From: an uncultured Dehalococcoidia bacterium
Lineage (GTDB): Bacteria > Chloroflexota > Dehalococcoidia > Lucifugimonadales > GCA-2712585
Length of the DNA: 64,000 bases
Assembly: GCA_958295715.1 (NCBI GenBank)
Contig: OY282371.1
Location: 875,183 to 939,182 of the forward strand
Direction of reading: 5' to 3'
Shown: positions 4,382 through 44,188 of the stretch, in pieces
Numbering within the stretch: the first letter of the stretch is position 1
How the letters are laid out: every line of letters begins with the position of its first letter
The notes under the pieces: model-generated
Databases searched by the model: none
Seen by the model: only the letters and a program-made list of their open reading frames with translations
What the model was told of the DNA's origin: nothing
Made by a program: the position numbers and the translations under genes

Positions 4382-4535
4382 AGCGGGTTCTCCCAGGACG
4401 CCGCGCGCCGGGCGGCGCAGGGAGCCGCGGCATCGTCTAGGCAGGTGGCCCTATGCCAAAGGAAAGGTGACATTTCGCGATATCACAACTCCAGGGCAGA
4501 CTTTGAGAACTATGGCATACCCCAGGGTGGATTCT

Positions 4536-4564
4536 ACTATACTCAGGCCCCGAACATCGCTCAA
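4536..4564 (-). promoter_or_regulatory. Candidate sigma70-type promoter for the lctP-like operon (TTGAGC-17 nt-TATAGT)
   Basis: Reverse strand: TTGAGC (4564-4559), a 17-nt spacer, then TATAGT (4541-4536). It lies ~150 nt upstream of the GTG start at 4381 and just downstream of the giant gene stop. Motif match only. Confidence 0.3.
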
Positions 4565-4613
4565 GCCGGACCTTGGCGACCTTCACCGGCAGGCCGGCAA
4601 CCCTATGCAGGCA

Positions 4614-7600
4614 TCATATAAACCGTATAAGCCCCAGCTTCCAGGCAAAAACCGCTCCGGCCGTCAGCGCCGCCGTTCCCGCCACCCCTAATGTCACAAC
4701 CGTCGCCAAGAACAGTGGGGAGAAGCCGTCCGGCTCCTCCGGGGCGGGTGATATTGTTGGCGTGGCTGTCGGGGTTGGAGTTGGCGCGGCCGTAGGTGTG
4801 GGGGATGGCGTGGCTGTGGGGGTTGGAGTTGGCGTGGCCGTAGGCGTGGGGGATGGCGCGGCCGTTGGTGTGGGAGTTGGCGTGGCGGTAGGCGTGGGGG
4901 ACGGCGTAGGCGTTGGTGTAGGAGTTGGCGTGGCCGTGGGCGTGGGGGATGGCGTGGGCGTGGGCGCAGGAGTTGGAGTGGGCGCAGGTGTGGGGGATGG
5001 CGTTGGCGCAGGCGTGGGTGTAGGAGTTGGCGTTGGCGCAGGCTGGGCGTCGGTGAGGGTGATGGTGGCGGCGGTGACGGAGAAGCCGGCGCTGGATCCC
5101 TCAACCAGGATGGTCTCGGTCCCCTCGCTGATGGCGTCGTCTATGGGCGTGACCATTAGGATGGCCGCGCCGCTGGACTCGGTGGCTCCGATGGTGACGT
5201 TGGCGGCGGCCCCGAAGTAGTCGGCGCCGGGGGTGGCGGTTCCGGAGAAGCTGATGGTGACGAGGGTGTCCTCATCGCGGGTTGTTTCTCCGTCGAGGGT
5301 CGCGGTGACGGTGACGTCTGTCGCGCCGTCGGACTCGAACAGGGCGGCGGGGTCCACCGAGAGGGTGATGACGGGGTCGTCGTCGTCGGCGATGGTGGTG
5401 GTCACCGACCTCACGTCGCCGAGGGCCGGGGGCGCTCCTCCTCCGCCCCTGGGAATGGAAATGGCGAAGGTGAAGTCCTCGCCGGTTCCCTCATCTATCT
5501 CGTCATCTGTGGTCTGGACTTCAACGGTCTTGGGGCCGGCGGCGGCGCTGGTGAAGGTGAGGGTTCCGGCTGCTGTTGTGTAGTCATCGCCGGCGGTGGC
5601 CGTTCCGTCGGCGGTGGCGTAGCTGACGGTGAGGTCGGCGGTGGGGATGACCCCGGCGGGCGAGAGGGAGACGGTGTAGATGGCGACGTTCCCCTCGTCC
5701 ACCGACTCGGAGCCAGACACCCTTAGGGTGACGGGGTCGCTCGGGCCAATGGTCACCGTCACGGGGTTGGTGAAGACGGCGATGTCTTCCGACGACGCGT
5801 TTGTGACCTTGCCTAGAGCCACGGTGAACCTCTCCACCGGCTCCGACAGGTTGTCGTCGGTGATGGAGATCGAGAAGGACTTTGTGGCGCTTTGGCGAGA
5901 GTTGGCGGCAAAGGTCACGGAGCCGGAGGCCGCGCCGTAGTCGCTCGCCGAGGCCGTTCCCGCCGTCGCAGACCACGCCACAGTGACCTTGCCGTCGACC
6001 TTGTGGGACAGGGTGATGGTGAAGGACGCAGCTTGGCCCTCGGCCACGCTCTGCCTCCCGGGGGAGAGGGTCAGCCCGGGCAGGTAGCCGTCGGACAGGT
6101 GGGGTATCTCGGGAGGTCTGGGTCTAGGCGGGTCGGGGGGGTCGTCCGGGGCGTCGTTGTCGGTTAGGATGATGATGGCGGGACTTATAGTCAAGCCCGC
6201 GTCCGGGGTGGTGTAGCCGCCGATGACGATGGTCTCGGTTCCCTCCGCCTCATCGTCGTCTATGGGTATGAATGTGAGGGTGGAGGTTGCGCTGGACGTC
6301 CCGGCGCTGATGATGATGGCGGTGGTCGTCGCGTTATAGTCTGCGCCAAGGGTGGCGGTTCCCGAATAGGTAATAGTGATGGCGGTGGTCGTCGCGGCGT
6401 AGTCGGCGCCTGAGAGGGTGGCAATGACGGTGACGGTGGTGGCGCCGTCGGACTCGTTGATGGAGGTGGGGTGCGCCGAGAGGGTTATGCCCGTGGGGGT
6501 GGCGTCACCGTCGTTGTCGTTGAGGGTGACGGTGGCTGAGGACACCGCCAAGCCTGAGGCGGTGGACCCCTCGACCACGATGGTCTCGTTCCCCTCGACG
6601 AGGGAGTCGTCTATGGGCGTGATGGTGAAGGCGCCCGAGCCGCTGGACGCTCCCGCGCTGATGGTGATGGCGGTGGTCGTCGCTGTGTAGTCGTCGCCGA
6701 GGGTGGCGGTTCCCCCCAGGGAGATGGTGACGGGGATGCTCGTCGCTGTGTAGTCGGCGCCGCCGAGGGTGGCGGTGACGGTGACGTTGGTGGCGGCGTC
6801 GGACTCGCCGATGGAAGTGGGGTTCACCGAGAGGGTTATGCCCGTGGGGGTGGCGTCGCCGTCGTTGTCGGAGAGGGTGATGGTGGCGGAGCTTACCGTC
6901 AAGCCGGCGCCCGCCGGGGTGGACCCGTCGACCACGATGGTCTCGTTGCCCTCTACCGTGGCGTCGTCTATGGGCGTGATGGCGAAGGTGGCGGAGCCGC
7001 TGGACATTCCCGCGCTGATGGTGATGTCTGTGGGCGTCGCGGTGTAGTCGTCGCCGAGGGTGGCGGTTCCCGAGAGGGAGATGGAAACAGAGGTGTCGGT
7101 GGCGCGGGTGGTGTCGCCGCCCAGAGTGGCGGTCACGGTGACGTTCGTGGCGGCGTCCCCCTCGGCGAGGGTGGCGGTGTCCACCGAGAGGGTGACGTCC
7201 GTGGGGGCCGCGTCGTCGTCGGTGATGGTGACCGAGGCGCTGCCTGTGGACGCCGACACGGAGACGCGGGCGGAGAGGGTGGAGGTGATGGAGCCCAAGG
7301 CCACGCTGAAGCTTTCCGATGCCTCCGAAAGGCTGTCGTCGGTGATAGAGATGGTGAAGGTCTTGGTGGCCCCGGCGGCTGAGTTGGCGGTGAAGGAGAC
7401 GGAGCCTGAACCCGTGCCGTAGTCGGCGGCCACGGCGGTTCCCGCGGAGGCCGACCAGGCGACGGATACGGCGGCGTCGACGGCGTGAGAGAGGGTGACG
7501 GTGAAAGAGGCGCTGGCCCCCTCGGCGACGTTGGCGGCGGGGCCTGAGATGGAGAGGGTGGCGTTGTCGTCGTCGGTGAGAGAGAGGGTGGCGGAGGAGA

Positions 7601-10600
7601 CGGAGAGTCCTACGCCCGACGCGGTGGATCCCTCGACGATGATAGACTCGTTGCCCTCGACTACGGCGTCGGAGGTGGGGGTGACGGCTAGGGTGGCGGT
7701 TCCCGAAGCCGAGCCTGCGGAGATAGTGACGTTGGCGGGGGTGGCCGAATAGTCGTCGGTTCCCGAGGCGGTTCCTGCGAGAGTGATAGTGACGAGGGTG
7801 TCCGTGGCGCGAGTTGTGGAGCCGTCGAGGGTGGCGGTGACGGTGAGGTTGGTTGCGGAGTCCGACTCGCCGATGGAGGCGTGGCTGAGGGATAGGGACA
7901 CGTCTGAGGGGGCCGAGTCGTCGTCGGTGATGGTGGTGGAGACCGACGTGACTGAGCCCAGGGAAGGTGAAGGCCCGCCGCCGCCTGAGGGGCCGGAGAT
8001 AGAGAAGGTGAAGCCCTCGCCGGCGCCCTCGTCAATGACGTCATCGGTCGTCTGGACCTCCACGGTCTGGGAGCCGGCGGCACTGCTGGTGAAAGTCAAC
8101 GTGCCTGAAGCTGCCGTGTAGTCGCTGGCGTAAGCGGTCCCGTGGGCGGTGGCGTAGGAGACGGTGAGGTCCGAGGTGGGTGTGACGCCTGAGGGGGAGA
8201 GGGACACGGTGTAAGTGGCCTTGGCCCCCTCGTTGACCGATGAGGGTCCAGAGAGGTTGACGGTGATGGGGTCGGAGGCCGAGATGGTGACGTCGCTGGA
8301 GGCGGCCGTGGCCGACAGGGACACCCTTGCCGAGAGCGTGGAGGTGATGGCGCCAAGGGCGACGGAAAAGGCCTCGGAGGTCTCCGAGAGGTCGTCGTTG
8401 ACGATGGCGACGGTGAAGGTCTTGGTGGAGTTGGCGGCTGAGTTGGCGGTGAAGGAGACGGAGCCTGAGGAGGTTGAATCGTAGTCGGCGGCGACGGCGG
8501 TGTCTGCGGAAGCTGCCCAGGCTACGGAGACGGCGGCGTCGACGGCGTGAGAGAGGGTGACGGTGAAGGACGCGTTGTTACCCTCGGCGACGTTGGCTGA
8601 GGGACCTGAGATGGAGAGAGTTGCGTTGTCGTCGTCGGTGATGGTGAGGGTGGCTGAGGAGACCGTCAATCCGACCCCCGAAGTCGTCGTGCCCTGCACG
8701 ATGATAGTCTCGTTGCCCTCGACTATGGCGTCGGAGGTGGGGGTGACGGCGAAGGTGGCGGTTCCCGAGGCGTCGCCTGCGGAGATGGTGACGTTGGCGG
8801 GGGTGGCGGCGTAGTCGTCGGTTCCCGATGCGGTTCCCCCGAGAGTGACGGTCACCAGGGTGTCGGTGGCGCGGGTAGTGGAGCCGTCGAGGGTGGCGGT
8901 GACGGTGACGTTGGTTGCGGAGTCCGACTCGCCGATGGAGGTGGAACTGAGGGATAGGGACACGTCAGTGGGGGCCGAGTCGTCGTCGGTGATGGTGGTG
9001 GACACCGACGTGACGGTTCCCAGGGTTGGGGTAGGCCCGCCTCCGCCCGAGGGTGAGGAGATAGAGAAGGAGAAGCCCTCGCCTGCTCCTTCGTCGATGA
9101 CGTCCTGTGTGGTCTGGACCTCCACGGTCTGGGAGCCTGAGGCGGCGTTGGTGAAGGTGAGGGTGCCTGATTTGGCGGTGTAGTCACCGGCGCCGGCCGT
9201 GCCGTGGGCGGTGGCGTAGTTGACGGTGAGGTCCGAGGTGGGGGTGACGCCCGAGGGAGATAGGGATACGGTGTAAGTGGCCTTGGCCCCCTCGTTGACC
9301 GATGAGGGTCCCGAGAGGTTGACGGTGATGGGGTCTGAGGCGGAGATGGTGACGTCGCTGGAGGCCGCCGTGGCCGACAGGGAGACGCGAGCGGAGAGGG
9401 TGCTGGTGATGGCGCCGAGGGCCACGCTGAAGGCCTCGGAGGTCTCCGACAGGTCGTCGTTGACGATGGCGACGGTGAAGGTCTTGGTGGAGTTGGCGGC
9501 GGAATTGGCGGTGAAGGAGACGGAGCCTGAGGAGGTGGAATCGTAGTCGGCGGCGACGGCGGTGTCTGCGGAGGCCGCCCAGGCTACGGAGACGGCGGCG
9601 TCTACGGCGTGGGAAAGAGTGACGGTGAAAGAGGCGTTGTTTCCCTCGGCGACGTTGGCGGATGGGCCAGAGATGGAGAGAGTGGCGTTGTCGTCGTCGG
9701 TGATGGTGAGGGTGGCGGAGGAGACGGAGAGTCCCACGCCCGAAGTCGTCGTGCCCTGGACGATGATAGTCTCGTTGCCCTCTACGACGGCGTCGCTTGT
9801 GGGGGTGACGGCGAAGGTGGCGGTTCCCGAGGCGTCGCCTGCGGAGATAGTGACGTTGGCTGGGGTGGCCGAGTAGTCGGCGGTTCCCGAGGCGGTTCCC
9901 CCGAGAGTGACGGTGACCAGGGTGTCCGTGGCGCGGGTGGTGGAGCCGTCGAGGGTGGCGGTGACGGTGAGGTTGGTTGCCGAGTCCGACTCACCGATGG
10001 AGGTGGAACTGAGAGAGAGGGACACGTCGGTGGGGGCCGAATCGTCGTCGGTGATAGTGGTGGAGACGGACGTGACCGTTCCCAGGGTTGGGGTAGGCCC
10101 GCCGCCGCCCGAGGGTCCTGAGATAGAGAAGGTGAATGCCTCGCCCGCGCCCTCGTCAATGACGTCATCAGTGGTCTGGACCTCGACGGTCTGGGAGCCT
10201 GGGGCGGCGTTGGTGAAAGTGAGGGTGCCTGATTTGGCGGTGTAGTCGTCGGCGCCGGCTGTGCCGTGGGCGGTGGCGTAGTTGACGGTGAGGTCTGATG
10301 TGGGGGTGACGCCCGAGGGGGAGAGAGAGACGGTGTAAGTGGCCTTGGCCCCCTCGTTGACGTCGGAGGGGCCTGAGAGGTTGATAGTGATGGGGTCGCT
10401 GGCTGCAATGGTGACGTCGCTGGAGGCCGCCGTGGCCGATAGGGACACCCTTGCCGACAGCGTGGAAGTGATGGCGCCAAGAGCCACGCTGAAGTCCTCT
10501 GAAGTCTCGGATAGGTCGTCGTTGATGATGGCGACGGTGAAGGTCTTGGTGGAGTTGGCCGCGGAATTGGCGGTGAAGCTGACCGACCCGGAAGCGGTTG

Positions 10601-13600
10601 AATCGTAGTCGGCGGCGACGGCGGTGTCGGCGGAAGCTGCCCAGGCGACGGATACGGCGGCGTCGACGGCGTGGGAGAGAGTGACGGTGAAAGAGGCGTT
10701 GTTTCCCTCTGCGACGTTGGCGGCGGGGCCGCTGATGGAGAGGGTGGCGTTGTCGTCATCGGTGATGGTGAGGGTGGCTGAGGAGACGGAGAGTCCCACG
10801 CCCGAAGCCGTCGTGCCCTGGACGATGATGGTCTCGTTGCCCTCGACTATGGCGTCGGAGGTGGGGGTGACGGCGAAGGTGGCGGTTCCCGATGCGTCGC
10901 CTGCGGAGATGGTGACGTTGGCGGGGGTGGCGGCGTAGTCGTCGGTTCCACTGGCCGTGCCTCCGAGGGTGACGGTGACCAGGGTGTCCGTGGCGCGTGT
11001 TGTGGAGCCGTCGAGGGTGGCGGTGACGGTGAGGTTGGTGGCGGCGTCCGACTCGCCGATGGAGGTGTCGCTGAGGGATAGGGATATGTCGGTGGGGGCG
11101 TCGTCGTCGTCGGTGATAGTGGTGGAGACGGAGGTGACCGTTCCCAGGGTTGGGGTAGGGCCTCCGCCGCCTGAGGGTCCTGAGATAGAGAAGGAGAAGC
11201 CCTCGCCCGCGCCCTCGTCGATGACGTCCTGGGTTGTCTGGACCTCGACGGTCTGGGAGCCGGCGGCGGCGTTGGTGAAAGTCAACGTCCCCGAGGCGGC
11301 GGTGTAGTCGTTGGAGCCGGCGGTTCCGTGGGCGGTGGCGTAGCTGACGGTGAGGTTGGAGGTGGGGGTGACGCCTGAGGGAGAGAGGGAGACGGTGTAG
11401 GTTGCCTTGGCCCCCTCGTTGACGTCGGAGGGGCCCGAGAGGTTGACGGTGATGGGGTCTGAGGCGGAGATGGTGACGTCGCTGGAGGCCGCCATCCCTG
11501 ATAGGGAGACCCGTGCCGACAGCGTGGAGGTGATGGCGCCGAGGGCGACGCTGAAGTCCTCTGAAGTCTCGGATAGGTCGTCGTTGACGATGGCGACGGT
11601 GAAGGTCTTGGTGGAGTTGGCGGCGGAATTGGCGGTGAAGGAGACCGACCCGGAGGAGGTGGAATCGTAGTCTGCGGCGACGGCGGTGTCGGCGGATGCC
11701 GCCCAGGCGACGGAGACGGCGGCGTCTACTGCGTGAGAGAGGGTGACGGTGAAAGAGGCGTTGTTTCCCTCTGCGACGTTGGCCGCGGGGCCTGAGATAG
11801 AGAGGGTGGCGTTGTCGTCGTCGGTGATGGTGAGGGTGGCTGAGGAGACGGAGAGTCCCACGGAAGAAGCCGTCGTGCCCTGGACGATGATAGTCTCGTT
11901 GCCCTCGACTATGGCGTCGCTTGTGGGGGTGACGGCGAAGGTGACGGTGCCCGAAGCCGAGCCTGCGGAGATAGTGACGTTGGCGGGTGTGGCGGCGTAG
12001 TCGTCGGTTCCCGAGGCCGTGCCTGCCAGGGTGATAGTGACGAGGGTGTCCGTGGCGCGAGTTGTGGAGCCGTCGAGGGTGGCGGTGACGGTGAGGTTGG
12101 TGGCCGAGTCCGACTCTCCGATGGCGGTGTGGCTGAGGGATAGGGAGATGTCGGTGGGAGCGTCGTCGTCGTCGGTGATGGTGGTGGAGACGGAGGTGAC
12201 GGTTCCCAGGGTTGGGGTTGGCCCGCCGCCGCCTGAGGGTCCTGAGATAGAGAAGGTGAAGCCCTCGCCTGCGCCTTCGTCGATGACGTCCTGGGTGGTC
12301 TGGACCTCGACGGTCTGAGAGCCTGGAGCGGCGTTGGTGAAAGTGAGGGTCCCCGAGGCGGCGGTGTAGTCGCCGGCGCCGGCCGTGCCGTGGGCGGTGG
12401 CGTAGTTGACGGTGAGGTCCGAGGTGGGGGTGACGCCCGAGGGAGAGAGGGAGACGGTGTAGGTGGCCTTGGCCCCCTCGTTGACGTCGGAGGGGCCTGA
12501 GAGATTGACGGTGATGGGGTCTGAGGCCGAGATGGTGACGTCGCTGGAGGCCGCCGTGGCCGACAGGGACACCCGGGCGGACAACGTGCTGGTGATGGCG
12601 CCGAGAGCGACGCTGAAGGCCTCCGCCGTCTCCGACAGACTGTCGTTGACGATGGCGACGGTGAAGGTCTTGGTGGAGTTGGCTGAAGAGTTGGCGGTGA
12701 AGCTGACCGACCCGGAAGCGGTTGAACTGTAGTCGGCGGCTACGGCGGTGTCGGCGGAGGCCGCCCAGGCAACGGAGACGGCGGCGTCTACTGCGTGAGA
12801 GAGAGTGACGGTGAAGGATGCGTTGTTTCCTTCGGCGACGTTGGCGGCGGGGCCAGAGATAGAGAGGGTGGCGTTGTCGTCGTCGGTGATGGTGAGGGTG
12901 GCTGAAGACACCGTCAAGCCCACTGATGAAGCCGTCGTGCCCTGGACGATGATAGTCTCGTTGCCCTCGACTACGGCGTCGCTTGTGGGGGTGACGGCGA
13001 AGGTGGCGGTTCCCGAGGCTGAGCCTGCGGAGATAGTGACGTTGGCGGGGGTGGCCGAGTAGTCGTCGGTTCCCGAGGCCGTGCCTGCCAGAGTGACGGT
13101 GACCAGGGTGTCCGTGGCGCGGGTAGTGGAGCCGTCGAGGGTGGCGGTGACGGTGAGGTTGGTGGCGGCGTCGGACTCGCCGATGGAGGTGGAACTGAGG
13201 GATAGGGAGATGTCGGTGGGGGCGTCGTCGTCGTCGGTGATGGTGGTGGAGACGGACGTGACCGTTCCCAGGGTTGGGGTAGGGCCTCCTCCTCCTGAGG
13301 GTCCGGAGATAGAGAAGGTGAAGGCCTCGCCTGCGCCCTCGTCGATGACGTCCTGGGTGGTCTGGACCTCAACGGTCTGGGAGCCTGGGGCGGCGTTGGT
13401 GAAGGTGAGGGTTCCCGAGGCGGCGGTGTAGTCATCGGCGCCGGCTGTGCCGTGGGCGGTGGCGTAGTTGACGGTGAGGTTGGAGGTGGGGGTGACGCCT
13501 GAGGGAGAGAGAGAGACGGTGTAAGTGGCCTTGGCGCCCTCGTTGACGTCGGAGGGCCCCGAGAGATTGATAGTGATGGGGTCGCTGGCTGCAATGGTGA

Positions 13601-31600: not shown

Positions 31601-34600
31601 CCGATGAGGGGCCTGAGAGGTTGACGGTGATGGGGTCTGAGGCCGAGATGGTGACGTCGCTGGAGGCCGCCGTCCCTGACAGGGACACCCGTGCCGACAG
31701 CGTGGAAGTGATGGCGCCAAGGGCCACACTGAAGGCCTCTGAAGTCTCCGACAGACTGTCGTTTATGATGGCGACGGTGAAGGTCTTGGTGGAGTTGGCT
31801 GAAGAGTTGGCGGTGAAGGAGACGGAGCCTGAGGAGGTTGAACCGTAGTCGGCGGCTACGGCGGTGTCTGCGGAGGCTGCCCAGGCTACGGAGACGGATG
31901 CGTCGACGGCGTGGGAGAGAGTGACGGTGAAAGAGGCGTTGTTTCCCTCGGCGACGTTGGCGGCGGGTCCAGAGATAGAGAGAGTGGCGTTGTCGTCGTC
32001 GGTGATGGTGAGGGTGGCGGAGGAAACCGTCAATCCGACCCCTGAAGCCGTCGTGCCCTGCACGATGATGGTTTCGTTGCCCTCGACTACGGCGTCGGAG
32101 GTGGGGGTGACGGCGAGGGTGGCGGTTCCCGAGGACGAGCCTGCGGAGATAGTGACGTTGGCGGGGGTGGCGGAGTAGTCGTCGGTTCCACTGGCCGTTC
32201 CCCCGAGGGTGACGGTGACCAGGGTGTCCGTGGCGCGGGTGGTGGAGCCGTCGAGGGTGGCGGTGACGGTGATGTTGGTTGCGCCGGCGGCCTCGCCGAT
32301 GGAGGTGGAACTGAGAGATAGGGACACGTCAGTGGGCGCCGAGTCGTCGTCGGTGATGGTGGTGGAGACGGACGTGACCGTTCCCAGGGTTGGGGTTGGC
32401 CCGCCGCCGCCCGAAGGGCCGGAGATAGAGAAGGTGAAACCCTCGCCTGCGCCCTCGTCGATGACGTCCTGGGTTGTCTGGACCTCGACGGTCTGTGAGC
32501 CTGGGGCGGAACTGGTGAAAGTCAACGTCCCCGAAGCGGCGGTGTAGTCGCCGGCGCCGGCGGTGCCGTGGGCGGTGGCGTAGTTGACGGTGAGGTCGGA
32601 GGTGGGGGTGACGTTGGCCGGTGAGAGGGAGACGGTGTAAGTGGCCTTGGCCCCCTCGTTGACCGAGCCGGGCCCCGAGAGATTGATAGTGATGGGGTCT
32701 GAGGCCGAGATGGTGACGTCGCTGGAGGCCGCCGTGGCCGACAGGGAGACGCGGGCCGACAACGTGGAAGTGATGGCGCCAAGGGCGACGGAAAAGGCCT
32801 CCGAGGTCTCCGAGAGGTCGTCGTTGACGATGGCGACGGTGAAGGTCTTGGTGGAGTTGGCGGCTGAGTTGGCGGTGAAGCTGACCGACCCGGAAGCGGT
32901 TGAACTGTAGTCTGAGGTGGCCGCCGTGTCGGCGGAAGCTGCCCAGGCGACGGAGACGGCGGCGTCGACGGCGTGGGAAAGGGTGACGGTGAAAGAGGCG
33001 TTGTTTCCCTCTGCGACGTTGGCGGCGGGGCCTGAGATGGAGAGAGTGGCGTTGTCGTCGTCGGTGATGGTGAGGGTGGCTGAGGACACCGTCAATCCGA
33101 CCCCCGACGCGGTGGAGCCGTTGACGATGATGGTCTCGTTGGCCTCGACGATGGCGTCGGAGGTGGGGGTGACGGCGAAGGTGGCGGTTCCCGAGGCCGA
33201 GCCTGCTGAGATAGTGACGTTGGCGGGGGTGGCGGCGTAGTCGTCGGTTCCACTGGCCGTGCCTCCGAGAGTGACGGTGACCAGGGTGTCCGTGGCGCGA
33301 GTGGTGGAGCCGTCGAGGGTGGCGGTGACGGTGACGTTGGTGGCGGCGTCGGACTCGCCGATGGAAGTGGAACTGAGAGAGAGGGACACGTCGGTGGGGG
33401 CGTCGTCGTCGTCGGTGATGGTGGTGGAGACGGAGGTGACCGTTCCCAGGGTTGGGGTTGGGCCGCCGCCGCCCGAGGGTGAGGAGATAGAGAAGGTGAA
33501 GCCCTCGCCCGCGCCCTCGTCGATGACGTCCTGGGTGGTCTGGACCTCCACGGTCTGGGAGCCTGGGGCGGCGTTGGTGAAAGTCAACGTCCCCGAGGCG
33601 GCGGTGTAGTCGCTGGCGCCGGCCGTGCCGTGGGCGGTGGCGTAGTTGACGGTGAGGTCTGAGGTGGGGGTGACGCCCGAGGGGGAGAGGGACACGGTGT
33701 AAGTGGCCTTGGCCCCCTCGTTGACGTCGGCTGGCCCCGAGAGATTGATAGTGATGGGGTCTGAGGCGGAGATGGTGACGTCGCTGGAGGCCGCCGTCCC
33801 CGACAGGGACACCCTTGCAGACAGCGTGGAAGTGATGGCGCCGAGGGCGACGGAAAAGGCTTCGGAGGTCTCCGAAAGGCTGTCGTTGATGATGGCGACG
33901 GTGAAGGTCTTGGTGGAGTTGGCGGCAGAGTTGGCCGTGAAGCTGACCGACCCGGAAGCGGTTGAATCGTAGTCGGCGGCTACGGCGGTGTCTGCGGAGG
34001 CTGCCCAGGCGACGGATACGGCGGCGTCAACGGCGTGGGAGAGGGTGACGGTGAAAGAGGCGTTGGAGCCTTCGGCGACGCTGGCCGCGGGGCCAGAGAT
34101 AGAGAGAGTGGCGTTGTCGTCGTCGGTGATGGTGAGGGTGGCTGAGGACACCGTCAATCCGACCCCTGAAGCCGTGGAGCCGTTGACGATGATAGTCTCG
34201 TTGCCCTCGACCACGGCGTCGCTTGTGGGGGTGACGGCGAAGGTGGCGGTTCCCGAGGCGTCGCCTGCGGAGATAGTGACGTTGGCGGGGGTGGCGGCGT
34301 AGTCCGTGGTTCCCGAGGCCGAGCCTGCCAGGGTGATGGTGACGAGGGTGTCCGTGGCGCGGGTAGTGGAGCCGCCGAGGGTGGCGGTGACGGTGACGTT
34401 GGTTGCGGAGTCCGACTCGCCGATAGAGGTGGAACTGAGGGATAGCGACACGTCTGTGGGCGCCGAATCGTCGTCGGTGATGGTGGTGGAGACGGAGGTG
34501 ACCGTTCCCAGGGTTGGGGTAGGGCCGCCGCCGCCTGAGGGTCCTGAGATAGAGAAGGTGAAGGCCTCGCCGGCGCCCTCGTCGATGACGTCATCGGTGG

Positions 34601-37600
34601 TCTGGACCTCCACGGTCTGGGAGCCTGGGGCGCTGCTGGTGAAAGTCAACGTCCCCGAGGCGGCGGTGTAGTCGTCTGCGCCGGCTGTGCCGTGGGCGGT
34701 GGCGTAGGAGACGGTGAGGTCCGAGGTGGGTGTGACGCCCGAGGGGGAGAGGGACACGGTGTAGGTGGCCTTGGCCCCCTCGTTGACCGAGCCTGGTCCC
34801 GAGAGGTTGACGGTGATGGGGTCTGAGGCGGAGATGGTGACGTCGCTGGAGGCCGCCGTCCCCGACAGGGAGACCCTTGCCGACAACGTGGAGGTGATGG
34901 CGCCTAGGGCCACGCTGAAGGCCTCCGCCGTCTCCGAGAGGTCGTCGTTGACGATGGCGACGGTGAACGTCTTGGTGGAGTTGGCGGCTGAGTTGGCGGT
35001 GAAGGACACGGAGCCTGAGGAGGTAGAATCGTAGTCGGCGGCGACGGCGGTGTCTGCGGAGGCTGCCCAGGCTACGGAGACGGCGGCGTCCACGGCGTGG
35101 GAGAGGGTGACGGTGAAGGAGGCGTTGTTTCCCTCGGCTACCGCGCCCGATGGTCCGCTGATGGAGAGGGTGGCGTTGTCGTCGTCGGTGATGGTGAGGG
35201 TGGCTGAAGACACCGTCAAGCCTACGCCTGAAGTCGTCGTGCCCTGGACGATGATAGTTTCGTTGCCCTCGACTATGGCGTCGGAGGTGGGGGTGACGGC
35301 GAAGGTGGCGGTGCCTGAGGCGTCGCCTGCTGAGATAGTGACGTTGGCGGGGGTGGCGGCGTAGTCGTCGGTTCCAGAGGCGGTTCCCGCGAGAGTGACG
35401 GTGACCAGGGTGTCGGTGGCGCGGGTAGTGGAGCCGTCGAGGGTGGCGGTGACGGTGAGGTTGGTGGCGGAGTCGGACTCGCCGATGGAGGTGTCGCTGA
35501 GGGATAGCGATATGTCGGTGGGGGCGTCGTCGTCATCGGTGATGGTGGTGGAGACGGAGGTGACCGTTCCCAGGGTTGGGGTTGGCCCGCCGCCGCCCGA
35601 GGGGGAGGAGATAGAGAAGGTGAAAGCCTCGCCCGCGCCCTCGTCAATGACGTCCTGGGTGGTCTGGACCTCGACGGTCTGGGAGCCGGCGGCGCTGCTG
35701 GTGAAAGTGAGGGTGCCTGAAGCTGCCGTGTAGTCATCGGCGCCGGCCGTGCCGTGGGCGGTGGCGTAGTTGACGGTGAGGTCTGATGTGGGGGTGACGC
35801 CCGAGGGAGAGAGGGAGACGGTGTAAGTGGCCTTGGCCCCTTCGTTGACGTCGGAGGGACCCGAGAGGTTGATAGTGATGGGGTCTGAGGCGGAGATGGT
35901 GACGTCGCTGGAGGCCGCCGTGGCCGACAGGGACACCCGTGCCGACAGCGTGCTGGTGATAGCGCCAAGGGCCACGGAAAAGGCCTCGGAAGTCTCGGAT
36001 AGGTCGTCGTTGATGATGGCGACGGTGAACGTCTTGGTGGAGTTGGCCGCGGAATTGGCGGTGAAGCTGACCGACCCGGAAGCGGTGGAATCGTAGTCGG
36101 CGGCTACGGCGGTGTCGGCGGATGCTGCCCAGGCGACGGAGACGGCGGCGTCGACGGCGTGGGAGAGAGTGACGGTGAAAGAGGCGTTGTTTCCCTCGGC
36201 GACGTTGGCTGAGGGGCCAGAGATAGAGAGGGTGGCGTTGTCGTCGTCGGTGATGGTGAGGGTGGCAGAAGACACCGTCAGGCCGACCCCTGCAGCCGTC
36301 GTGCCCTGGACGATGATAGTCTCGTTGGTTTCGACTATGGCGTCGGAGGTGGGGGTGACGGCGAAGGTGGCGGTTCCCGAATCGGAGCCTGCGGAGATAG
36401 TGACGTTGGCGGGGGTGGCTGAATAGTCGGCGGTTCCCGAGGCGGTGCCCGCGAGAGTGATGGTGACGAGGGTGTCGGTGGCGCGAGTAGTGGAGCCGTC
36501 GAGGGTGGCGGTGACGGTGACGTTGGTTGCGCCGGCGGCCTCGCCGATGGAGGTGTGGCTGAGGGAGAGGGACACGCCGGTGGGGGCCGAGTCGTCGTCG
36601 GTGATGGTGGTGGACACCGAAGACCCGGACGCTAGGGAAGGTGAAGGCCCGCCGCCTCCTGAGGGTGAGGAGATGGCGAAGGTGAAGGCCTCGCCTGCGC
36701 CTTCGTCGATGACGTCCTGGGTTGTCTGGACCTCGACGGTCTGGGAGCCCGCCGCCGTGCTGGTGAAGGTGAGGGTGCCTGATTTGGCGGTGTAGTCGCC
36801 GGCCTTGGCCGTGCCGTGGGCGGTGGCGTAGTTAACGGTGAGGTTGGATGTGGGGGTGACGCCTGAGGGAGATAGGGACACGGTGTAAGTGGCCTTGGCC
36901 CCCTCGTTGACCGATGAGGGGCCTGAGAGGTTGATGGTGATGGGGTCGCTGGCTGCAATGGTGGCGCTGGCGGAGGAGGAGGAGGCGGTTATCCGGGCTG
37001 AGAGGGTGGAAGTGACGGCGCCGAGAGCCACGCTGAAGTTCTCCGCCGTTTCAGAGAGGTTGTCATTGATGGTGGCTATGGTGAAAGTCTTGGTGGAGTT
37101 GGCGGCTGAGTTGGCGGTGAAGCTGACCGAGCCTGAGGTGGTTGAACCGTAGTCGCTGGTGGCCGCCGTGCCCGCGGATGCCGACCAGGCTACGGATACG
37201 GCGGCGTCTACGGCGTGGGAGAGGGTGACGGTGAAGGAGGCGTTGGAACCCTCGGATACCGCGCCCGATGGTCCGCTGATGGAGATGGTTGCGTTGTCGT
37301 CGTCGGTGATAGTGAGGGTGGCAGAGGAGACCGTCAGGCCCACGCCCGCCGCCGTGGCGCCGTTGACGATGATGGTCTCGTCGCCCTCGACGACGGCGTC
37401 GGAGGTGGGGGTGACGGCTAGGGTGGCGGTTCCCGAGGCTGAGCCTGCGGAGATAGTGACGTTGGCGGGAGTGGCGGAGTAGTCGGTGGTTCCCGAGGCG
37501 GAGCCTGCCAGGGTGATAGTGACCAGAGTGTCGGTGGCGCGGGTGGTGGAGCCGTCGAGGGTGGCGGTGACGGTGACGTTGGTTGCGCCGGCGGCCTCGC

Positions 37601-40600
37601 CGATGGAGGTGGAACTGAGGGAGAGGGAGACGCCGGTGGGGGCCGAGTCGTCGTCGGTGATGGTGGTGGAGACCGACGTGACCGTTCCCAGGGTTGGGGT
37701 AGGGCCTCCTCCTCCTGAGGGGGAGGAAATGGCGAAGGTGAAGTTCTCGCCTGCGCCTTCGTCAATGACGTCCTGGGTTGTCTGGACCTCCACGGTCTGG
37801 GAACCCGCCGCCGTGCTGGTGAAGGTGAGGGTCCCTGATTTGGCGGTGTAGTCGCCGGCCTTGGCCGTGCCGTGGGCGGTGGCGTAGTTGACGGTGAGGT
37901 CTGATGTGGGGGTGACGCCCGAGGGAGATAGGGAGACGGTGTAGGTGGCCTTGGCCCCCTCGTTGACGGTGCCGGGGCCTGAGAGGTTGACGGTGATGGG
38001 GTCTGAAGCCGAGATGGTGGCGCTGGCGCTGTTGGCCGTTGATAACACGGACACCCGGCTCGACAGGTCGCCCGTCACCGCCCCCAGGGTCACGCTGAAG
38101 TTCTCCGACGTCTCCGAAAGGTCGTCGTCGGTTATGGGTATGCTGATGGTCTCCGTCGTGGAGCCTGCCGCGACGGTCGCGGTCCCGGAGGCCGTCCCGT
38201 AGTCGCTGCTTCCCGCCGTCCCCGCCGTTGCCGACCAGGCCACCGTGACCGCCGCGTTCGCCCTTTTCGACAGGGTGACGGTGAACTCCGCGTTGCTGCC
38301 CTCGGCGACGCTTGAGGATGGGCCTGCGATGGAGAGGGTGGCGGTGTCGGCGTTCGTGGTGTCGCCGGCGGCGGCGTCGGCAAGGGTGATGGCCGCCGCC
38401 TCCACGATGCCCAGGGTCGTGGAGCTGGTGGCGTCAATGATAATCGTCTCGTCGGTCTCCACCACGTCGTCGTTTACGGGGGTGATGGTGAAGGACTGGC
38501 TGGCCACCTCCTGGCGGGCCGGTATCGTTAGGGTTGTGGGCAGGTTATGGGTGTAGTCGTCGGTCACCGTGGCCGTGCCTTCCAGGGTGAAGGTGAGGAC
38601 CAGGGCCGAGTTCAACCCCCCGCCCTGGGGTCTAGCGGACACGCGGTACGACTGCTGCCCGCTGCCCTCGTTTATGGGGGTTGGCCCGGTGACCGCCAGT
38701 TGTACGGTGTCAGGAATCACGTCGTCATCAAGCAGATTGATGGTTGCGGTCTTTGCCAGCGTCTGAGTCAACCCCGTAGCCGCCACCGCTATGTTGATGG
38801 TCTCGGTTGGCTCTACCGTGCCGTCGTCCACGGGGGTGATTCTCAGTTGCCCCGAGATGCTGCCCTGGTTGGCCGGGATGTTCAGAGTGGGAATCGAGGC
38901 GGTGTAGTCCGCCGCCGTCGCGGTGCCTCCGGAGGCTATGGTGAGGGTGACGGGCGTCTCCACCGACCTGACTGCGCCGTTGAGGGACACCTTTACGTTG
39001 ATGGAGGTCTGCCCGCCGTTTTCCGACACGCTGGTGGGGCTGACGTCCAGGCTGATGTCCGTAGACGGCGAGGTGGTGTCAATCAGGCTTATTTCGGGCG
39101 TATTCACCCTGCTGTGATTAGATGCATACAGCCGTATCGTCTCCGCCGATTCGATGATGCTGTCGGCCACAGGGGTGATGGCGATGGTGATCATCCCCGT
39201 CGTGGTGTCCGCCGGTATGATGATAGCGGCGATTTCGCCGAAATTAGATTCGTCTCCTTCAGGGTAGTTCTCCTCAACGGTGAAGTCCGTAGCCCTCACC
39301 GCGGTGCCCGTTGGAATCACGCCGCCGGAGCCGGCTTCTCCGGAGAGCTTTATGCCGAGACGCAAGTCACGCGTTAACGGCAGGCCGTTCTGAACGGCCG
39401 TTATCGTCACCGTGGTCTTCCCATCGTCCTCACGGATGCTGGCGGGGTTAACGCTCAGGGTTATCCTGTCGGCGCCAAAGCCGCACGTCCCGCTGGAGCG
39501 GTTCGTCACGTCGGTGAATCTAGCGGGGAGGTTCTCCAGGGGATTGCCGCAGAGGTGCAGGGTGTTGAAGTCGCTGTTGTCCTCCAACAGTTCCGCCAGC
39601 ATGTTGGAGGGCACCCTTTCGATTCTGTTGGTATGCAGATATACCGATACGAGGAGTCTTCTGCCCTCCGACCTGCCCAGGCCGTGGAAGGTGTTTGCCG
39701 CAATGGAGGGGATTTGGTTGTTGTTCAGGTAGACGTGCTTGAGCTTGTTTTGGCCGCTGAATATCCCCGAGGGCAGCCCTCTAATGCGGTTGTTGTTGAG
39801 GGTCAGCTTATTGGTCACTACTGTCCCGGTGAGCAGGTCCCTGTCCAGGGAGGTGAGAAGGTTGTTATTCAGTCGCAGGGTCTCGATCTCACCGAGGTTT
39901 CTGAACACCCCGGTGGCTATACTGCTTATCCAGTTGCGGTCCAGCTCTATCACTTTCAGGTTGGGGGAGTTGCTGAAGAGCGTGGCGCTGGGCAACGTCC
40001 TAATCTGATTTCCAGTCAAAGTGAGGGTCTCGAGGCTGCTTAGGCCGTTGAACCCGCCGGTGGACAGCGAGGCCAGTCTGTTAGCGGACACGTTCAGAAC
40101 CTTAAGGCCGCTCAGGCCGGTGAACCCGCCGGTGGACAGCGAGGTCATTCTGTTATTAGACAGGTCCAGCCTCTCCAGGTTGCTCAGGCCGGTGAATAAC
40201 CCGCTGGGCAGCGAGGTAATGAGGTTTCTAGATAGATCCAGTTCCTCCAGATTCGGCAGCCCTGTGAAGGACTTCGCCGGCGGGGAGAAGGCCCGGCCGG
40301 TGCCTCTGCCTGCCGCTTGGTTTAGGTCCAGCCTTTTCAGGCTGTTCAGGCCGTGAAACGGGCCCTGCGTCTCACTCCCCACTACCCGCGTGGGCAGCGT
40401 TGTAAACCGGTTATCAGATAGATTGAGAACTTCTAGGGATGTAAGCCCGGAGAATATGCCATCGGGCAGAGTGGTTAGGTCGTTGCCCCCAAGTGCAAGC
40501 CATTCTAGCTCGGTGAGTCCGGAGAATAGGCCCGCGGGCAGGCTTGTGAGATGGCCGTTGTGAAGGTAAATGTGTTCGAGTTTGGGCGAGTGGGCGAATA

Positions 40601-41528
40601 GGCCCGCAGGCACGCTGGTCAGGGCGCCGGCGCGGCCAGCGCCGCCAAAGTTCACCCTCTCCAGCTTGCTGAGGCCCCTGAAGGCGTGTACGTGCACATT
40701 ACCCGCGAGGGCGTTCCTGGCTACGTCGAGAAACGTGATGTTGGTTGCTCCGGCGAAGGCGTCGTTTCGCAGGGCCGTGATGCCGTTGTCTTGCAGCCGC
40801 AACGTGGTCAGGCTGCTCAGGCCGTTGAACAGATTCGCGGGCAGGTCGGTGATGTTGTTGTGCTCCAGCCTCAGGGTTGTAAGCCCGCTCAGGCCCCCGA
40901 AGTCGCCGGCCTTCAGGTTCCCCGTGCCCACTCTTCGCAGGTCCAACTCAGTGATGGCCGAAAGATGGGCGGGTGTGACCTCCGCGCAGTTGCTGACGCC
41001 GGCCATGGTCATCAGCGAGTTGCGCAGCCGCTCCGTGCGGTCGCAAACGCCCTCCTCAATAGTAACGTTGGTGGTCCGCGTGGCAGCCGCCCCCAATAGG
41101 TAGCCGGCGGTGGCCCCGGGGGCGCTCAGCGTTACGGTGAAGAACTCGTGGGCCGCCTCGATGGCGGTGTCGGAGGCGATGCCTATTTGGAAGGAGCCGG
41201 TCCCGCTGCCCGCCGACAGGGTGGCGGTGCGGGAGAGGGTTGAGGATGCAAGGTCGTCGGCGTCAGCCGCCGCGCCGGTGAAGGTCCCGGTGAAGGATAT
41301 GGTGTAGCCGACGCTCAGGGAGCCGGCGGGAACCGGGTTGATGGACAGGTTCACCGAGGCGTTCCCGCCCTCCCGCCCGGCTTGGGTGGAGCTGATGGTG
41401 ACGACGGGCGTGGTCTGCGCCCCGGCGGGCAGCGCGGGGAAAAGTCCTGCCGCCGCGGCCGTGACCGCCGCTATCAGCAGGGCCATCAGCCCCCGCCGCA
41501 GGATGGTATAGGCTATCGGGGACAACAC
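4614..41528 (-). CDS. Giant (12,304 aa) secreted/cell-surface repeat protein: signal peptide, LRR block, ~100 Calx-beta-like domains, Pro/Thr linker, C-terminal TM anchor
   Basis: Single uninterrupted 36,915-nt ORF in the track. The N-terminus [39 protein letters not shown] is signal-peptide-like. Next comes a Calx-beta-like domain (aa ~41-160), then LRRs (LxxLxLxxNxIxxLPxxxFxGL) at aa ~190-690. After that, ~118-aa modules carry the Calx-beta signature (V.EG....F.V.LS....V.V.Y.T..GTA....DY....G.L.F......Q.v.v....D...E..E.F). The protein ends in a 100-aa (T/S/A)P linker and a hydrophobic helix. Confidence 0.9.
4641..4715 (-). other. C-terminal transmembrane anchor of the giant protein ([25 protein letters not shown], followed by KLGLIRFI)
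   Basis: The last 44 aa are [44 protein letters not shown]. This is a short polar motif, a 25-aa hydrophobic stretch and a short basic tail. Confidence 0.7.
4749..5048 (-). repeat. Low-complexity Pro/Thr-linker coding repeat (100 aa of [14 protein letters not shown]...)
   Basis: Seen in both the translation and the DNA (ggcgtgggggatggcgt/ggagttggcgtggc-type short degenerate repeats). Its antisense gives the spurious GVGV-rich ORF 4573-5220. Confidence 0.9.
7230..38345 (-). repeat. Intragenic tandem array: 29 full copies plus 1 partial copy of a 1062-bp (354-aa, three Calx-beta-like modules) unit
   Basis: Homologous landmarks recur with exact 1062-nt spacing: 7495, 8557, 11743, 12805, 14929, 15991, 17053, 20239, 24487, 25549 ... 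38293, which equals 7495+29x1062. Copies are similar but not identical. A hand alignment of 60 nt at 8557 versus 9619 gives 53/60 identical, many differences being synonymous. Boundaries are approximate. Confidence 0.9.
39530..40960 (-). other. Leucine-rich-repeat (LRR) block of the giant protein, ~20 repeats of ~24 aa
   Basis: The translation shows repeated L(T/S)xLxLxxNxI(T/S)xLPxGLFxGLxxL. Examples are [38 protein letters not shown] and [38 protein letters not shown]. Coordinates are approximate. Confidence 0.85.
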
Positions 41529-41653
41529 GGCCTTACGGAGCCACCGGCCCCGCTAGCGACTCCGATTTCGTCACCCAAAATCCGCTGCGTCTTCTCCAAG
41601 TTGCGACTTTCTGCGTTGTTCTGGCTGAAATCCGGCGCGCGTTCGGGAAAATC

Positions 41654-41671
41654 GGGGGGGGGGGGGGGGGG
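41654..41671. repeat. Homopolymer G18 (C18 on the giant-gene strand), 126 nt upstream of the giant gene start
   Basis: Direct count in the sequence: atc + 18 g + tagaattc. Confidence 0.95.
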
Positions 41672-42796: not shown

Positions 42797-43274
42797 AGGA
42801 ACTCGTCGGTCAGCCTCGGAATGCGGCTATCGCATACTCCATACCTATGCCGACGGACTCTCCCATGGGGAGAGGGCGTGTCAACGGGGGGCTTATACAC
42901 ATCTTCCCTACAGGTGATGAGAGTTCGCCGTTATTTGCTTAGGCTTGTCATCTTCTACGTGAAGAAGCGGAACCGATAAGGCGCGTGTCTCAAGTCGGCA
43001 TTCGCTTGACTATTCGGGCGAGGACCTTTCGCATAGGCTAAAGTGACGGGTAGGTTTGCCTTACAAGGAAGCATTGACCCGGTTCATTGCTCATTGACAT
43101 AACGAGCGCTCAGTTCAGGGGATGGCGAGTTCCTAAGACTGGCAGGGTTCCGCTCTCAAATTACCCTACGCTCTGCTTTCAATGCGCTCAACCGCGCGTC
43201 GGATTTTGCCAAGCTCGAAAAGGCACTTCTTGCGCTGTTCGGAATCCATCTGCTTCATATCGGGGATCAGGTTT

Positions 43275-44168: not shown

Positions 44169-44188
44169 TATCCATGCTCCCGATAGTT

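Follow-up and report, generated by a model that had tools for sequence, protein, structure and literature searches.

The 64,000-nucleotide stretch of DNA analyzed here, referred to as the window, covers positions 875,183 to 939,182 of contig OY282371.1 from an uncultured Dehalococcoidia bacterium. A single gene occupies more than half of it. Its 12,304-residue product is probably a single-chain fibrillar adhesin on the surface of a marine, monoderm-type Dehalococcoidia cell, with a leucine-rich repeat (LRR) head carried on a stalk of Calx-beta domains that would be stiffened by Ca2+. From this architecture we infer that the chain would form a long fiber presenting a binding head.

The gene lies on the minus strand as one stop-free open reading frame (ORF) with a GTG start codon, and translation places its sole stop at the very end (4614–4616). 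The preliminary description of this DNA, made from the sequence alone, had reported an uninterrupted ORF of 36,915 nucleotides and 12,304 residues that takes 58% of the window. The ORF list and our own translation, with zero internal stops, confirm this; the measured share is 57.7%. The coordinates were borne out as well, and the strand, absent from that description, is now added. At 66% GC, stops should make up a few percent of random codons, and chance cannot realistically account for 12,304 codons without one. Many long "shadow" ORFs overlap the gene on both strands. The protein has a mass of 1.199 MDa and a pI of 4.05, is composed of 17% threonine, 15% serine, 15% alanine, and 7% aspartate, and contains 86 lysines and four cysteines in all. 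With a G+C content of 66%, the gene shows a plus-strand GC skew of about +0.3, which stems from an abundance of ACC, GCC, and TCC codons on the coding strand. The G+C content at third codon positions (GC3) is 0.79–0.84, compared with 0.77–0.87 in the housekeeping neighbors, and this equality indicates that the gene, whose codon usage is host-like, is native to its host. Neither the gene nor its ortholog, found on another uncultured Dehalococcoidia chromosome and described below, carries an annotation in the searched collections.

The features of the protein from the N to the C terminus are collected in Table 1. The predicted signal peptide has two arginines in the n-region, a hydrophobic core, and a cleavage region that reads ALPAGA before the glutamine and is kept in the ortholog. 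A conserved Tat motif is not present, as the ortholog has RW in place of RR, and the signal sequence points to export of the Sec type. The first domain after the signal peptide is a small divergent β-sandwich that is 71% identical to its counterpart in the ortholog. The preliminary description had placed the LRR block at the N terminus, and this holds for the region although not for the very tip, where the small domain comes first. A second divergent domain follows the LRR and is 31–38% identical to domains of many multi-Calx-beta proteins by BLAST. Neither of the two domains that flank the LRR matches a Pfam family. At the C terminus, a linker rich in proline and threonine (Pro/Thr linker) leads to a predicted transmembrane (TM) helix, whose frame "GFSPL...FAWK" is kept in the ortholog. 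The 354-residue unit, the Pro/Thr linker, the TM anchor, and the signal peptide listed in the preliminary description were thus all recovered by inspection of the sequence and from the anchor spacing given below. No NCBIfam sorting-signal model matches the C-terminal tail of the giant protein or of the ortholog, even at E 10, and none of the catalogued surface-anchor domains was found in the giant protein by Pfam and NCBIfam scans.

Table 1. Features of the giant gene, its predicted product, and the upstream homopolymer, in window coordinates
Feature	Residues	Position	Strand	Basis or remark
Whole ORF	1–12,304	4614..41528	-	12,304 aa; ORF list and translation
Predicted signal peptide, cleavage before Q	1–37	41418..41528	-	sequence by eye and comparison with ortholog
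Divergent β-sandwich domain, weakly Calx-beta-like	39–157	41058..41414	-	local hidden Markov model (HMM), E 5e-4
LRR solenoid, ~19 repeats	160–686	39471..41051	-	Pfam LRR_8; repeat and Cys map
Divergent Calx-beta-like domain after the LRR	689–819	39072..39464	-	BLAST to Calx proteins
Three non-array Calx-beta domains	820–1169	38022..39071	-	Pfam 4.2e-21, 3 stretches; local HMM
Array, 29 super-repeats x 354 aa (1062 nt)	1176–11439	7212..38003	-	87 domains
27 core units of the array		8274..36947	-	mean identity 87% nt, 91% aa
Three B-type Calx-beta domains	11440–11792	6153..7211	-	Pfam, local HMM
24-aa proline-rich hinge	11793–11816	6081..6152	-	sequence
Last Calx-beta triplet, C-A-B	11817–12162	5043..6080	-	Pfam, local HMM
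Pro/Thr linker, 107 aa		4725..5045	-	sequence; 76% P+T
Predicted C-terminal TM helix, 28 uncharged residues	12269–12296	4641..4724	-	sequence by eye
Eight-residue tail KLGLIRFI, predicted cytoplasmic		4617..4640	-	sequence
G18 homopolymer (C18 on the coding strand)		41654..41671	+	126–143 nt upstream of the GTG start

The stalk is dominated by a tandem array. The anchor sequence DPIT[VI]NLSGP occurs in 29 copies from residue 1176 to 11439, spaced by 354 residues (352 in one case) over 30.8 kb. Every super-repeat consists of three different Calx-beta domains, namely A (119 residues, with a 10-residue insertion), B (117 residues), and C (118 residues), which are mutually just 25–35% identical. 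A local HMM built from the array domains detects 97 Calx-beta-like domains, which are packed end to end with 0–7 residues between them; the exceptions to this packing are the LRR region and the proline-rich hinge at residues 11793–11816. Of these 97 domains, 96 lie in Pfam-positive regions and one, at residues 39–157, is weak, whereas the domain at residues 689–819 is additional and is recognized by BLAST only. The figure of about 100 domains in the preliminary description can therefore be replaced by a defensible count of 96 clear domains and 2 divergent ones that are tentative.

The Calx-beta profile search returned scores well above the curated Pfam gathering score of 27 bits for PF03160 in three regions of the protein. 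One 354-residue unit scored 91.2 bits (6e-26, 3 stretches), residues 820–1169 scored 75.6 bits (4.2e-21), and the C-terminal 868 residues scored 187.5 bits (8.8e-56, six stretches). When the PDB was searched with a profile of 24 domains from the protein itself, the matches were NCX1 CBD12 (3us9; 6.5e-19), full-length NCX1, and Drosophila CALX. The single-domain profile was required for this, as the whole 354-residue unit gave no match in the PDB with phmmer. A model of one B-type domain, the only type modeled, was made with AlphaFold2 using an alignment of the protein's own domains and reached a pLDDT of 91.8; from a single sequence, the 354-residue unit reached 41. In a Foldseek search of the PDB with the B-domain model, ranks 1–23 were CALX CBD1, NCX1 CBD1 and CBD2, and the integrin β4 Calx-beta domain, with TM-scores of ~0.6–0.69. 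These searches and the model confirm the assignment of the array domains to the Calx-beta fold, predicted as the seven-strand sandwich of NCX and CALX. The preliminary description had allowed that the modules might belong to a different Ig-like fold, and all three approaches, Pfam, the profile match to NCX1 CBD12, and Foldseek, return Calx-beta instead.

Across 48 domains from the protein and its ortholog, six columns are invariant: Glu-17, Ala-50, Asp-55, Asp-83, Glu-87, and Glu-90. The HMM alignment places Asp-55 on the "SDY" of NCX1, Asp-83, Glu-87, and Glu-90 on "DDDIFEEDE," and the C-terminal DDD on "FDDD." The Ca2+ ligands of NCX1 CBD1 have reportedly been established, and we take them to be Glu-385, Asp-421, Asp-446/447, Glu-451, Glu-454, and Asp-498–500. 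The aligned acidic residues of the array domains would presumably be equivalent to the CBD1 ligands Asp-421, Asp-447, Glu-451, Glu-454, and Asp-498–500. By this alignment, the putative Ca2+-ligand residues are kept in every domain type, and the full set is present at most junctions; the terminal DDD is missing from the C-type domains. There are good grounds to predict that the domain ends bind Ca2+.

The head consists of the LRR block and its flanks. Pfam assigns LRR_8 (2.8e-73, 242 bits) and related LRR families to residues ~190–690, and the repeats, about 19 in number, have mainly a 24-residue period with the pattern LxxLxLxxNxL. The only cysteines of the protein bracket the LRR, with Cys-162 and Cys-181 on the N side and Cys-660 and Cys-682 on the C side, and all four are invariant in the ortholog. 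Their restriction to the LRR flanks and their conservation fit an oxidizing, extracellular location. The two pairs resemble simplified LRRNT and LRRCT caps, with 2 cysteines each compared with the usual 4, and match no Pfam cap model. The nearest PDB sequences to residues 37–760 are all extracellular ectodomains of animals; they comprise IGFALS (1.8e-51), LRRTM, LRRC15, and LGR4/5, and further relatives are TLR13, TLR3, Toll, and the variable lymphocyte receptors. Because the best solved relatives are exclusively animal LRR ectodomains, the term eukaryote-like, which the preliminary description used for the LRR block, is justified.

The "x" positions on the concave face of the LRR are 50.5% identical between the two orthologs, compared with 72% for the rest of the LRR (Fisher p 1.6e-4). 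This faster divergence suggests a binding surface that may be diverging toward lineage-specific ligands. A further LRR protein, of 839 residues, is encoded in Candidatus Latescibacterota (OZ240239.1, locus L001, 943–3459). It matches the head with 36% identity in its LRR region, its two N-cap cysteines are likewise 19 residues apart, and its C terminus carries dockerin/EF-hand-like "DFNGDG..DF.DFF.F" repeats. The matching N-cap cysteines indicate that the presumably capped LRR module also circulates in another uncultured phylum.

The units of the array are closely related without being copies of one another. No pair is identical, the 27 core units share 84–92% of their nucleotides, and the last unit shares 75%. 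All 28 unit spacings are in frame. Among the core units, dN is 0.057 and dS is 0.35, which gives a dN/dS of 0.16; 240 of the 382 variable columns fall at the third codon position, and 173 codons vary only synonymously. This pattern reflects selection on the protein and not noise, and the array units are under purifying selection. The identity between two units does not depend on their distance, and there is no neighbor effect. Most variable columns (299 of 382) are parsimony-informative with variants at intermediate frequencies, and site pairs fail the four-gamete test in 59% of cases when they are less than 50 nt apart and in ~70% (up to 71%) when they are farther apart. The units are thus mosaics drawn from a common variant pool. 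Short-tract gene conversion that occurs repeatedly would produce such mosaics and is a likelier cause than recurrent mutation.

A near-regular protein array is therefore encoded by degenerate DNA: 264 of the 354 unit positions are invariant at the amino acid level, and the longest in-register run of identical nucleotides in any pair of units is 120 nt (median 53). Two benefits would follow from this arrangement. Neighboring domains that are less than 40% identical reportedly reduce inter-domain misfolding, and the A-B-C super-repeat, which keeps neighbors at 25–35% identity, would limit such misfolding. Short exact repeats lower RecA-mediated deletion, and the synonymous divergence, which keeps exact DNA repeats to 120 nt or less, would limit recombinational loss of units.

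The preliminary description had also raised the concern that an array of this kind might be misassembled. Read support was taken from the Logan unitigs and contigs of five public short-read runs from one sample, so that the unit count is judged on short reads. The head is represented by 95% of its sampled 31-mers in the five runs and the flank by 82–95%, whereas for the array merely 44–50% of the sampled 31-mers are present in each run's contigs. Unitigs with zero mismatches span 37977–38840 and 38939–41671 on the head side, and 4109–6506 at the 3' end including the stop codon. Within the array, the de Bruijn unitigs are just 45–220 nt long; with four runs combined, unit 16 is fully tiled by exact matches. 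Depth and multiplicity were compared for each unitig, as a bin-level ratio double-counts overlapping unitigs. In runs X1–X3, the depth relative to the head is ~0.5 for one predicted copy, 1.1–1.5 for two, ~2 for 3.2, and 4.1–4.9 for 6.8. Unit-specific unitigs have a depth of 3–7x, compared with 5–8x for the unique 3' end. From these short reads, we estimate the uncertainty of the copy number at about ±30%, and the unit order is supported to the same degree. The short reads thus back the assembly at the two ends, in unit 16, and in the relation between depth and multiplicity, and they back the exact number and order of units within that ±30% only.

Several irregularities were seen among the unitigs. 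One unitig, present in all four runs, joins array positions (25108 / 34666 to 28301) via 38 nucleotides absent from the assembly (CGCCCACCGGGGCTGCTTCGGGGCCGGTGAGGAAATCC), and several others run from short array matches into unrelated sequence (e.g. at 28320 and 38241). These unitigs probably reflect k-mer sharing with other loci or strains or, less probably, a paralog or a minor structural variant. An alternative junction at 4592 that was apparent in one unitig search was not reproduced.

Relatives of the stalk were sought by an exhaustive phmmer search with one 354-residue unit against 1.84 billion representative proteins. It returned 17,816 proteins at E < 1e-3, of which 2,693 have E < 1e-30. 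Giant multi-Calx-beta proteins are common. The best 150 of the 17,816 relatives (P0001–P0150) are 762–7,677 residues long with up to 47 matched stretches, many of them in the range of 3,000–7,700 residues, and none is longer. Among 157 relatives examined, 37 have an aromatic C-terminal residue, a trait of outer-membrane β-barrels. LRRs are also present in P0006, P0075, P0120, and P0044, and a Pro/Thr linker with a TM tail is present in P0026 and P0050.

Among the best 150 relatives and those examined, the head is common only to one protein (P0003), with 68% identity over 816 residues. It is encoded on a contig of 3,002,008 bp (ENA ERZ19489113, s808.ptg000975c), which is OY282442.1, chromosome 1 of an uncultured Dehalococcoidia bacterium. 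P0003 and the next ORF (loci L083/L084) together make up the ortholog, whose head region, including all four cysteines, is 70% identical over 1,175 residues. The two ORFs, of 2,698 and 2,421 residues, are separated by a 1-nt deletion just after "...ETAESFSV" (L083 ~18085), at a site outside any long homopolymer. When rejoined, they encode a protein of ~5,118 residues with 35 Calx-beta domains, a Pro/Thr linker of roughly double the length, and the tail "PEPEPTGFSPL...FAWKRGFGRSLR." It has the layout of the giant protein: a signal peptide, a small domain, the LRR, a stalk of A-, B-, and C-type Calx-beta domains, the Pro/Thr linker, and the "GFSPL...FAWK" TM tail. The stalk of the ortholog is irregular, with an uneven domain order, spacings of 234–707 residues, and units that are 45–95% alike. 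Its units are 44–71% identical to those of the window, compared with 91% at the amino acid level among the window units. This irregular and divergent stalk implies that the regular 29-unit array arose or was homogenized in the lineage of the window.

No further ortholog was found in the GTDB species representatives or, with the head alignment, in the JGI metagenomes. Homology searches with residues 1–200 returned nothing, and those with residues 560–1000 returned weak Calx matches only. Among 80 related loci, none has a giant gene beside the lysyl-tRNA synthetase (LysRS) gene that neighbors it in the window.

Taken together, the domain layout suggests how the fibrillar adhesin would be built and would work. 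The N-terminal signal peptide would route the chain through Sec, and the C-terminal helix would act as a stop-transfer anchor, giving a type I topology with 8 residues in the cytoplasm and ~12,230 outside. The 107-residue Pro/Thr segment would serve as an extended spacer through the envelope and is possibly O-glycosylated. The stalk would be made up of ~98 tandem Calx-beta sandwiches, whose junctions would be stiffened in Ca2+-rich seawater, by analogy with NCX1 CBD1-CBD2 and with Ca2+-dependent giant adhesins. At ~4 nm per domain, the length of the rod is estimated at ~0.35–0.45 μm. At its distal end, the animal-type 19-repeat LRR solenoid, presumably disulfide-capped, would bind a ligand on a host cell, matrix, microbe, or particle.

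Several points weigh against the adhesin reading. Anchorage by one TM helix is mechanically weak for a load-bearing adhesin of 0.4 μm, and this favors a role in capture, spacing, or sensing, or else a further attachment. LRRs can mediate non-adhesive recognition too, and the divergence of the concave face may merely reflect the solvent exposure of those positions. Because the terminal DDD is missing from the C-type domains, some junctions need not bind Ca2+. The signal peptide and the TM helix were assigned by eye. The copy number rests on short reads, and a few units may have been gained or lost in register. The sole ortholog is frameshifted; it may be a pseudogene in its population, and the function may be dispensable.

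The difficulty of the weak anchor would disappear if the C-terminal tail, of the form "PE-x-P-x-GFSPL + helix + FAWK-x-G," were a cleavable sorting signal like PEP-CTERM, PGF-CTERM, or LPXTG. A sortase-like enzyme would then fix the mature fiber covalently to an envelope component, or the fiber would be shed. This alternative is unlikely, although it has several points in its favor. The frame of the tail is kept in both orthologs despite the differing length of the linker, the tail of the ortholog (PEPEP...helix...KRGFGRSLR) recalls PEP-CTERM, and P0050 has a similar tail, "GDGGFPWW + helix + RRSRR," after its Pro/Thr linker. In addition, nearly half of fibrillar adhesin-like proteins are without a recognized anchor (PMC8286594). 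However, even the permissive NCBIfam search described above matched neither tail with a sorting domain, and no gene for a sortase, exosortase, archaeosortase, or rhombosortase was found in the 64-kb window or in the flanks of the ortholog. The examples number two to three only, and the "motif" could be chance conservation at a TM boundary.

A slightly less likely alternative is that the protein is a structural element of the envelope or matrix, a Ca2+-dependent spacer or "brush" in which the LRR head has a minor or regulatory part. Such an element could set the distance between cells or between cell and host, protect from grazers and phages, or promote homophilic aggregation via the stalk. The stalk accounts for 95% of the mass, and with its pI of 4.05 the protein would form a Ca2+-binding polyanionic coat, for which, being non-load-bearing, a weak TM anchor would be enough. 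Stalk length differs nearly threefold between the orthologs. Marine cadherin-like and Calx-like repeats are reported to take part in Ca2+-dependent homophilic and heterophilic interactions, according to work cited in PMC12153261. Nevertheless, the head is as conserved as the base of the stalk (68–74%) and both of its cysteine pairs are kept, which argues for a functional head, and its concave face shows a divergence pattern of the recognition type. The order of a distal binding module, a stalk, and a proximal anchor is also the canonical layout of an adhesin (PMC8286594).

Marginally more doubtful still is a joint reading in which the organism is an animal symbiont, probably of a sponge, and the protein mimics host molecules. 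The LRR head and Calx-beta tether would plug into the Ca2+-dependent adhesion and allorecognition matrix of the host, hold the symbiont in the mesohyl, mark it as "self," and avert phagocytosis, and the fast-diverging concave face of the LRR would track host-specific ligands. Relatives of the housekeeping and LRR genes occur in sets of metagenome-assembled genomes (MAGs) typical of sponges (Poribacteria, Latescibacterota, and Dehalococcoidia), and genes with tetratricopeptide repeats (TPRs) lie nearby; both are hints in this direction. A further hint is that sponge symbionts are enriched in eukaryote-like domains, LRR and Calx-beta included (PMC11706023). The aggregation factors of demosponges are built from Calx-beta domains (PMC5400394).

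By far the least probable account, that the array is an assembly artifact (expanded, collapsed, or chimeric) or the gene dead and unexpressed, can point to long tandem arrays as classic sites of misassembly, to the low recovery of array 31-mers relative to the head, to shuffled polymorphism that could in principle come from consensus errors, and to the frameshift in the ortholog, but it is opposed by 12,304 codons without a stop and 28 of 28 spacings in frame, by units of which no two exceed 92% nucleotide identity, so that none is a duplicated copy, by a dN/dS and third-position variation that assembly errors do not produce, by the exact tiling of unit 16 in four runs with depth that tracks multiplicity and unit-specific pieces at about single-copy depth, and by a longest exact repeat of 120 nt that accurate long reads resolve trivially.

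Compared with known systems, the protein is recognizable as a bacterial fibrillar adhesin and does not represent a new kind of system; it is unusually large and regular and comes from an unexpected lineage. The fibrillar adhesins surveyed by Monzon et al. 2021 (PMC8286594) share with it a single chain, a terminal binding module, a β-sandwich rod, and a C-terminal anchor. As in fibrillar adhesin-like proteins defined there, the presumed adhesive region (LRR, residues 160–686) lies at the terminus distal to the anchor at the extreme C terminus, the stalk is a tandem of 96–98 back-to-back β-sandwiches, and the surface anchor would be the single C-terminal TM helix with its basic tail. The signal-like N terminus, the cysteines that flank the LRR, and the TM helix are all consistent with an extracellular location. 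The layout of Gram-positive fibrillar adhesins, with an N-terminal adhesive domain, a stalk, and a C-terminal anchor, is the closest to that of the giant protein. In contrast to the known fibrillar adhesins, it appears to be anchored by a plain TM helix and not by LPXTG and sortase, SLH domains, or a β-barrel, it combines a Calx-beta stalk with an animal-type, presumably capped LRR head, and it is far longer. Chloroflexota are outside the four phyla that dominate the survey (PMC8286594). Substrates of sortases, exosortases, or archaeosortases differ from it in the same respects that were noted above for the tail and the missing enzymes in the window and in the flanks of the ortholog.

MpIBP from Marinomonas primoryensis, LapA, SiiE, and BapP from Pseudoalteromonas tunicata are likewise megadalton proteins with tandem Ig-like domains stiffened by Ca2+. 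Giant adhesins of the RTX and Bap types carry tens to ~120 Ig-like domains and distal ligand-binding modules. Calx-beta repeats occur in the adhesins LapA and BapP, the latter reported to be Ca2+-dependent (PMC12153261). The RTX giants are secreted C terminus first by a type I secretion system (T1SS), carry RTX repeats, and have an N-terminal plug in the outer membrane, so that the polarity of the giant protein is opposite. With its predicted Ca2+-stiffened stalk it would work like an RTX adhesin, yet it is not a member of this group: its C-terminal 868 residues give no HemolysinCabind match, and no T1SS genes lie within the 64 kb.

Eukaryotic NCX1, CALX, and integrin β4 have the Calx-beta fold and the Ca2+-ligand residues in common with the array domains, at an identity of ~20%. 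ADGRV1/VLGR1 and FRAS1/FREM are further eukaryotic Calx-beta proteins. Animal Calx-beta proteins pair the domain with VWA, Wreath, GAIN-7TM, and other modules, whereas the bacterial chain with its predicted TM anchor pairs it with an N-terminal LRR. Extracellular tandem Calx-beta arrays also serve adhesion and allorecognition in animals, as in the sponge aggregation factors (PMC5400394). The Periscope proteins (PMC9704523) share with the giant protein a surface rod, an N-terminal functional domain, and a repeat number that differs greatly between relatives (35 versus 98 domains). That class is defined by a very high DNA identity of the repeats and by expansion and contraction at the population level (PMC9704523), whereas the core units here are 87% identical in nucleotides (84–92%) and match exactly over no more than 120 nt.

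The window also encodes SerRS, class II LysRS, GreA, RsmD, CoaD, a tRNA-Ala, and a GH3 hydrolase. The LysRS is at most 65% identical to that of any species representative, and its top matches are Dehalococcoidia and SAR202 MAGs. On the same strand downstream of the giant gene lie a gene for a 551-residue polytopic membrane protein and one for a GLUG-motif lipoprotein, and upstream is a divergent DUF805 gene. A 623-residue Arg/Pro/Gly-rich ORF at 2562–4433 (minus strand), the longest at this place, is spurious, a product of high GC. It overlaps the true gene, which encodes the 551-residue membrane protein in another frame at 2726–4381 (minus strand). No T1SS, sortase, usher, or glycosyltransferase gene was found near the giant gene in the 64-kb window, which is consistent with plain Sec export and a TM anchor. 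The neighborhood of the ortholog is unrelated and includes an HsdR type I restriction gene downstream. A haloarchaeal origin with a PGF-CTERM tail and Tat export had been considered on account of the acidity of the protein, its threonine-rich linker, the "PDGF" before the helix, and the RR in the signal peptide. It was ruled out by the bacterial neighbors (GreA and bacterial-type LysRS and SerRS), by the Dehalococcoidia and SAR202 matches of LysRS, by the lack of any match to a sorting-signal model, and by the loss of the RR in the ortholog.

The G18 tract is part of the 555 nt that separate the giant gene from the divergent DUF805 gene. It interrupts the unitigs, and its length varies by run, with one additional G in X3 and five in X2. 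Slipped-strand events that phase-vary expression could account for this, as could plain poly-G sequencing error. No such homopolymer is present upstream of the ortholog, and no Rfam element was found upstream of the giant gene. A weak σ70-like site at 41945–41917 (minus strand) would put G18 in the 5'-untranslated region.

A low-GC island is present at ~43200–50400 of the window (52–55% GC compared with 61–67% around it; GC3 0.59–0.66) and contains six co-oriented genes. Two are ParB/DndB-like (PADLOC matches PDC-M38A and PD-Lambda-5_A), one encodes a SNF2 helicase (ZorD/DpdE-like, 1e-41), and the others encode a 151-residue protein, a GHKL-type ATPase, and a radical-SAM-like protein. The island is probably a horizontally acquired anti-phage defense island. 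Both giant genes adjoin defense genes, without shared synteny. Secreted proteins with GLUG-motif repeats are encoded at 557–2434 and 60731–63079, both on the minus strand (Pfam Glug, 1.4e-26 for the former and 3.2e-08 for the latter), and count as additional surface proteins. A lipoprotein-like signal (LTVVGC) is present in the former, the latter has weak similarity to regions of ZmpA/ZmpC, and an N-terminal module, "DYD.DDDGLIEV..L.QLNA.R.DL.G.G," is common to both. TPR proteins are encoded at 59915–60670 and 63175–63645 (minus strand) and end in one and the same C-terminal module (...WGKAKADL..AK.L...VAAQF...YGSVEEFE.K..V.LPEDVAALL); three near-identical 34-residue copies in the former make up the window's longest stretch of repeated 31-mers, 312 nt.

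Proteins of more than 10,000 residues are rare yet documented in many bacterial phyla (bioRxiv 10.1101/2023.11.21.568195). At 12,304 residues, the protein described here exceeds every one of the best 150 multi-Calx-beta relatives among 1.84 billion representatives. To our knowledge, Dehalococcoidia have small genomes and no characterized surface adhesins. If the genome is ~3 Mb like that of the ortholog, the giant gene takes up ~1.2% of it. The protein offers a natural example of the rules by which a long rod can be built, with dissimilar neighbors provided by a three-domain super-repeat, conserved residues at the predicted Ca2+ sites, and a near-perfect protein repeat on degenerate DNA. If the organism is host-associated, the presumably capped, animal-type LRR head on its Calx-beta stalk would be a concrete candidate for a molecule of symbiont-host recognition.

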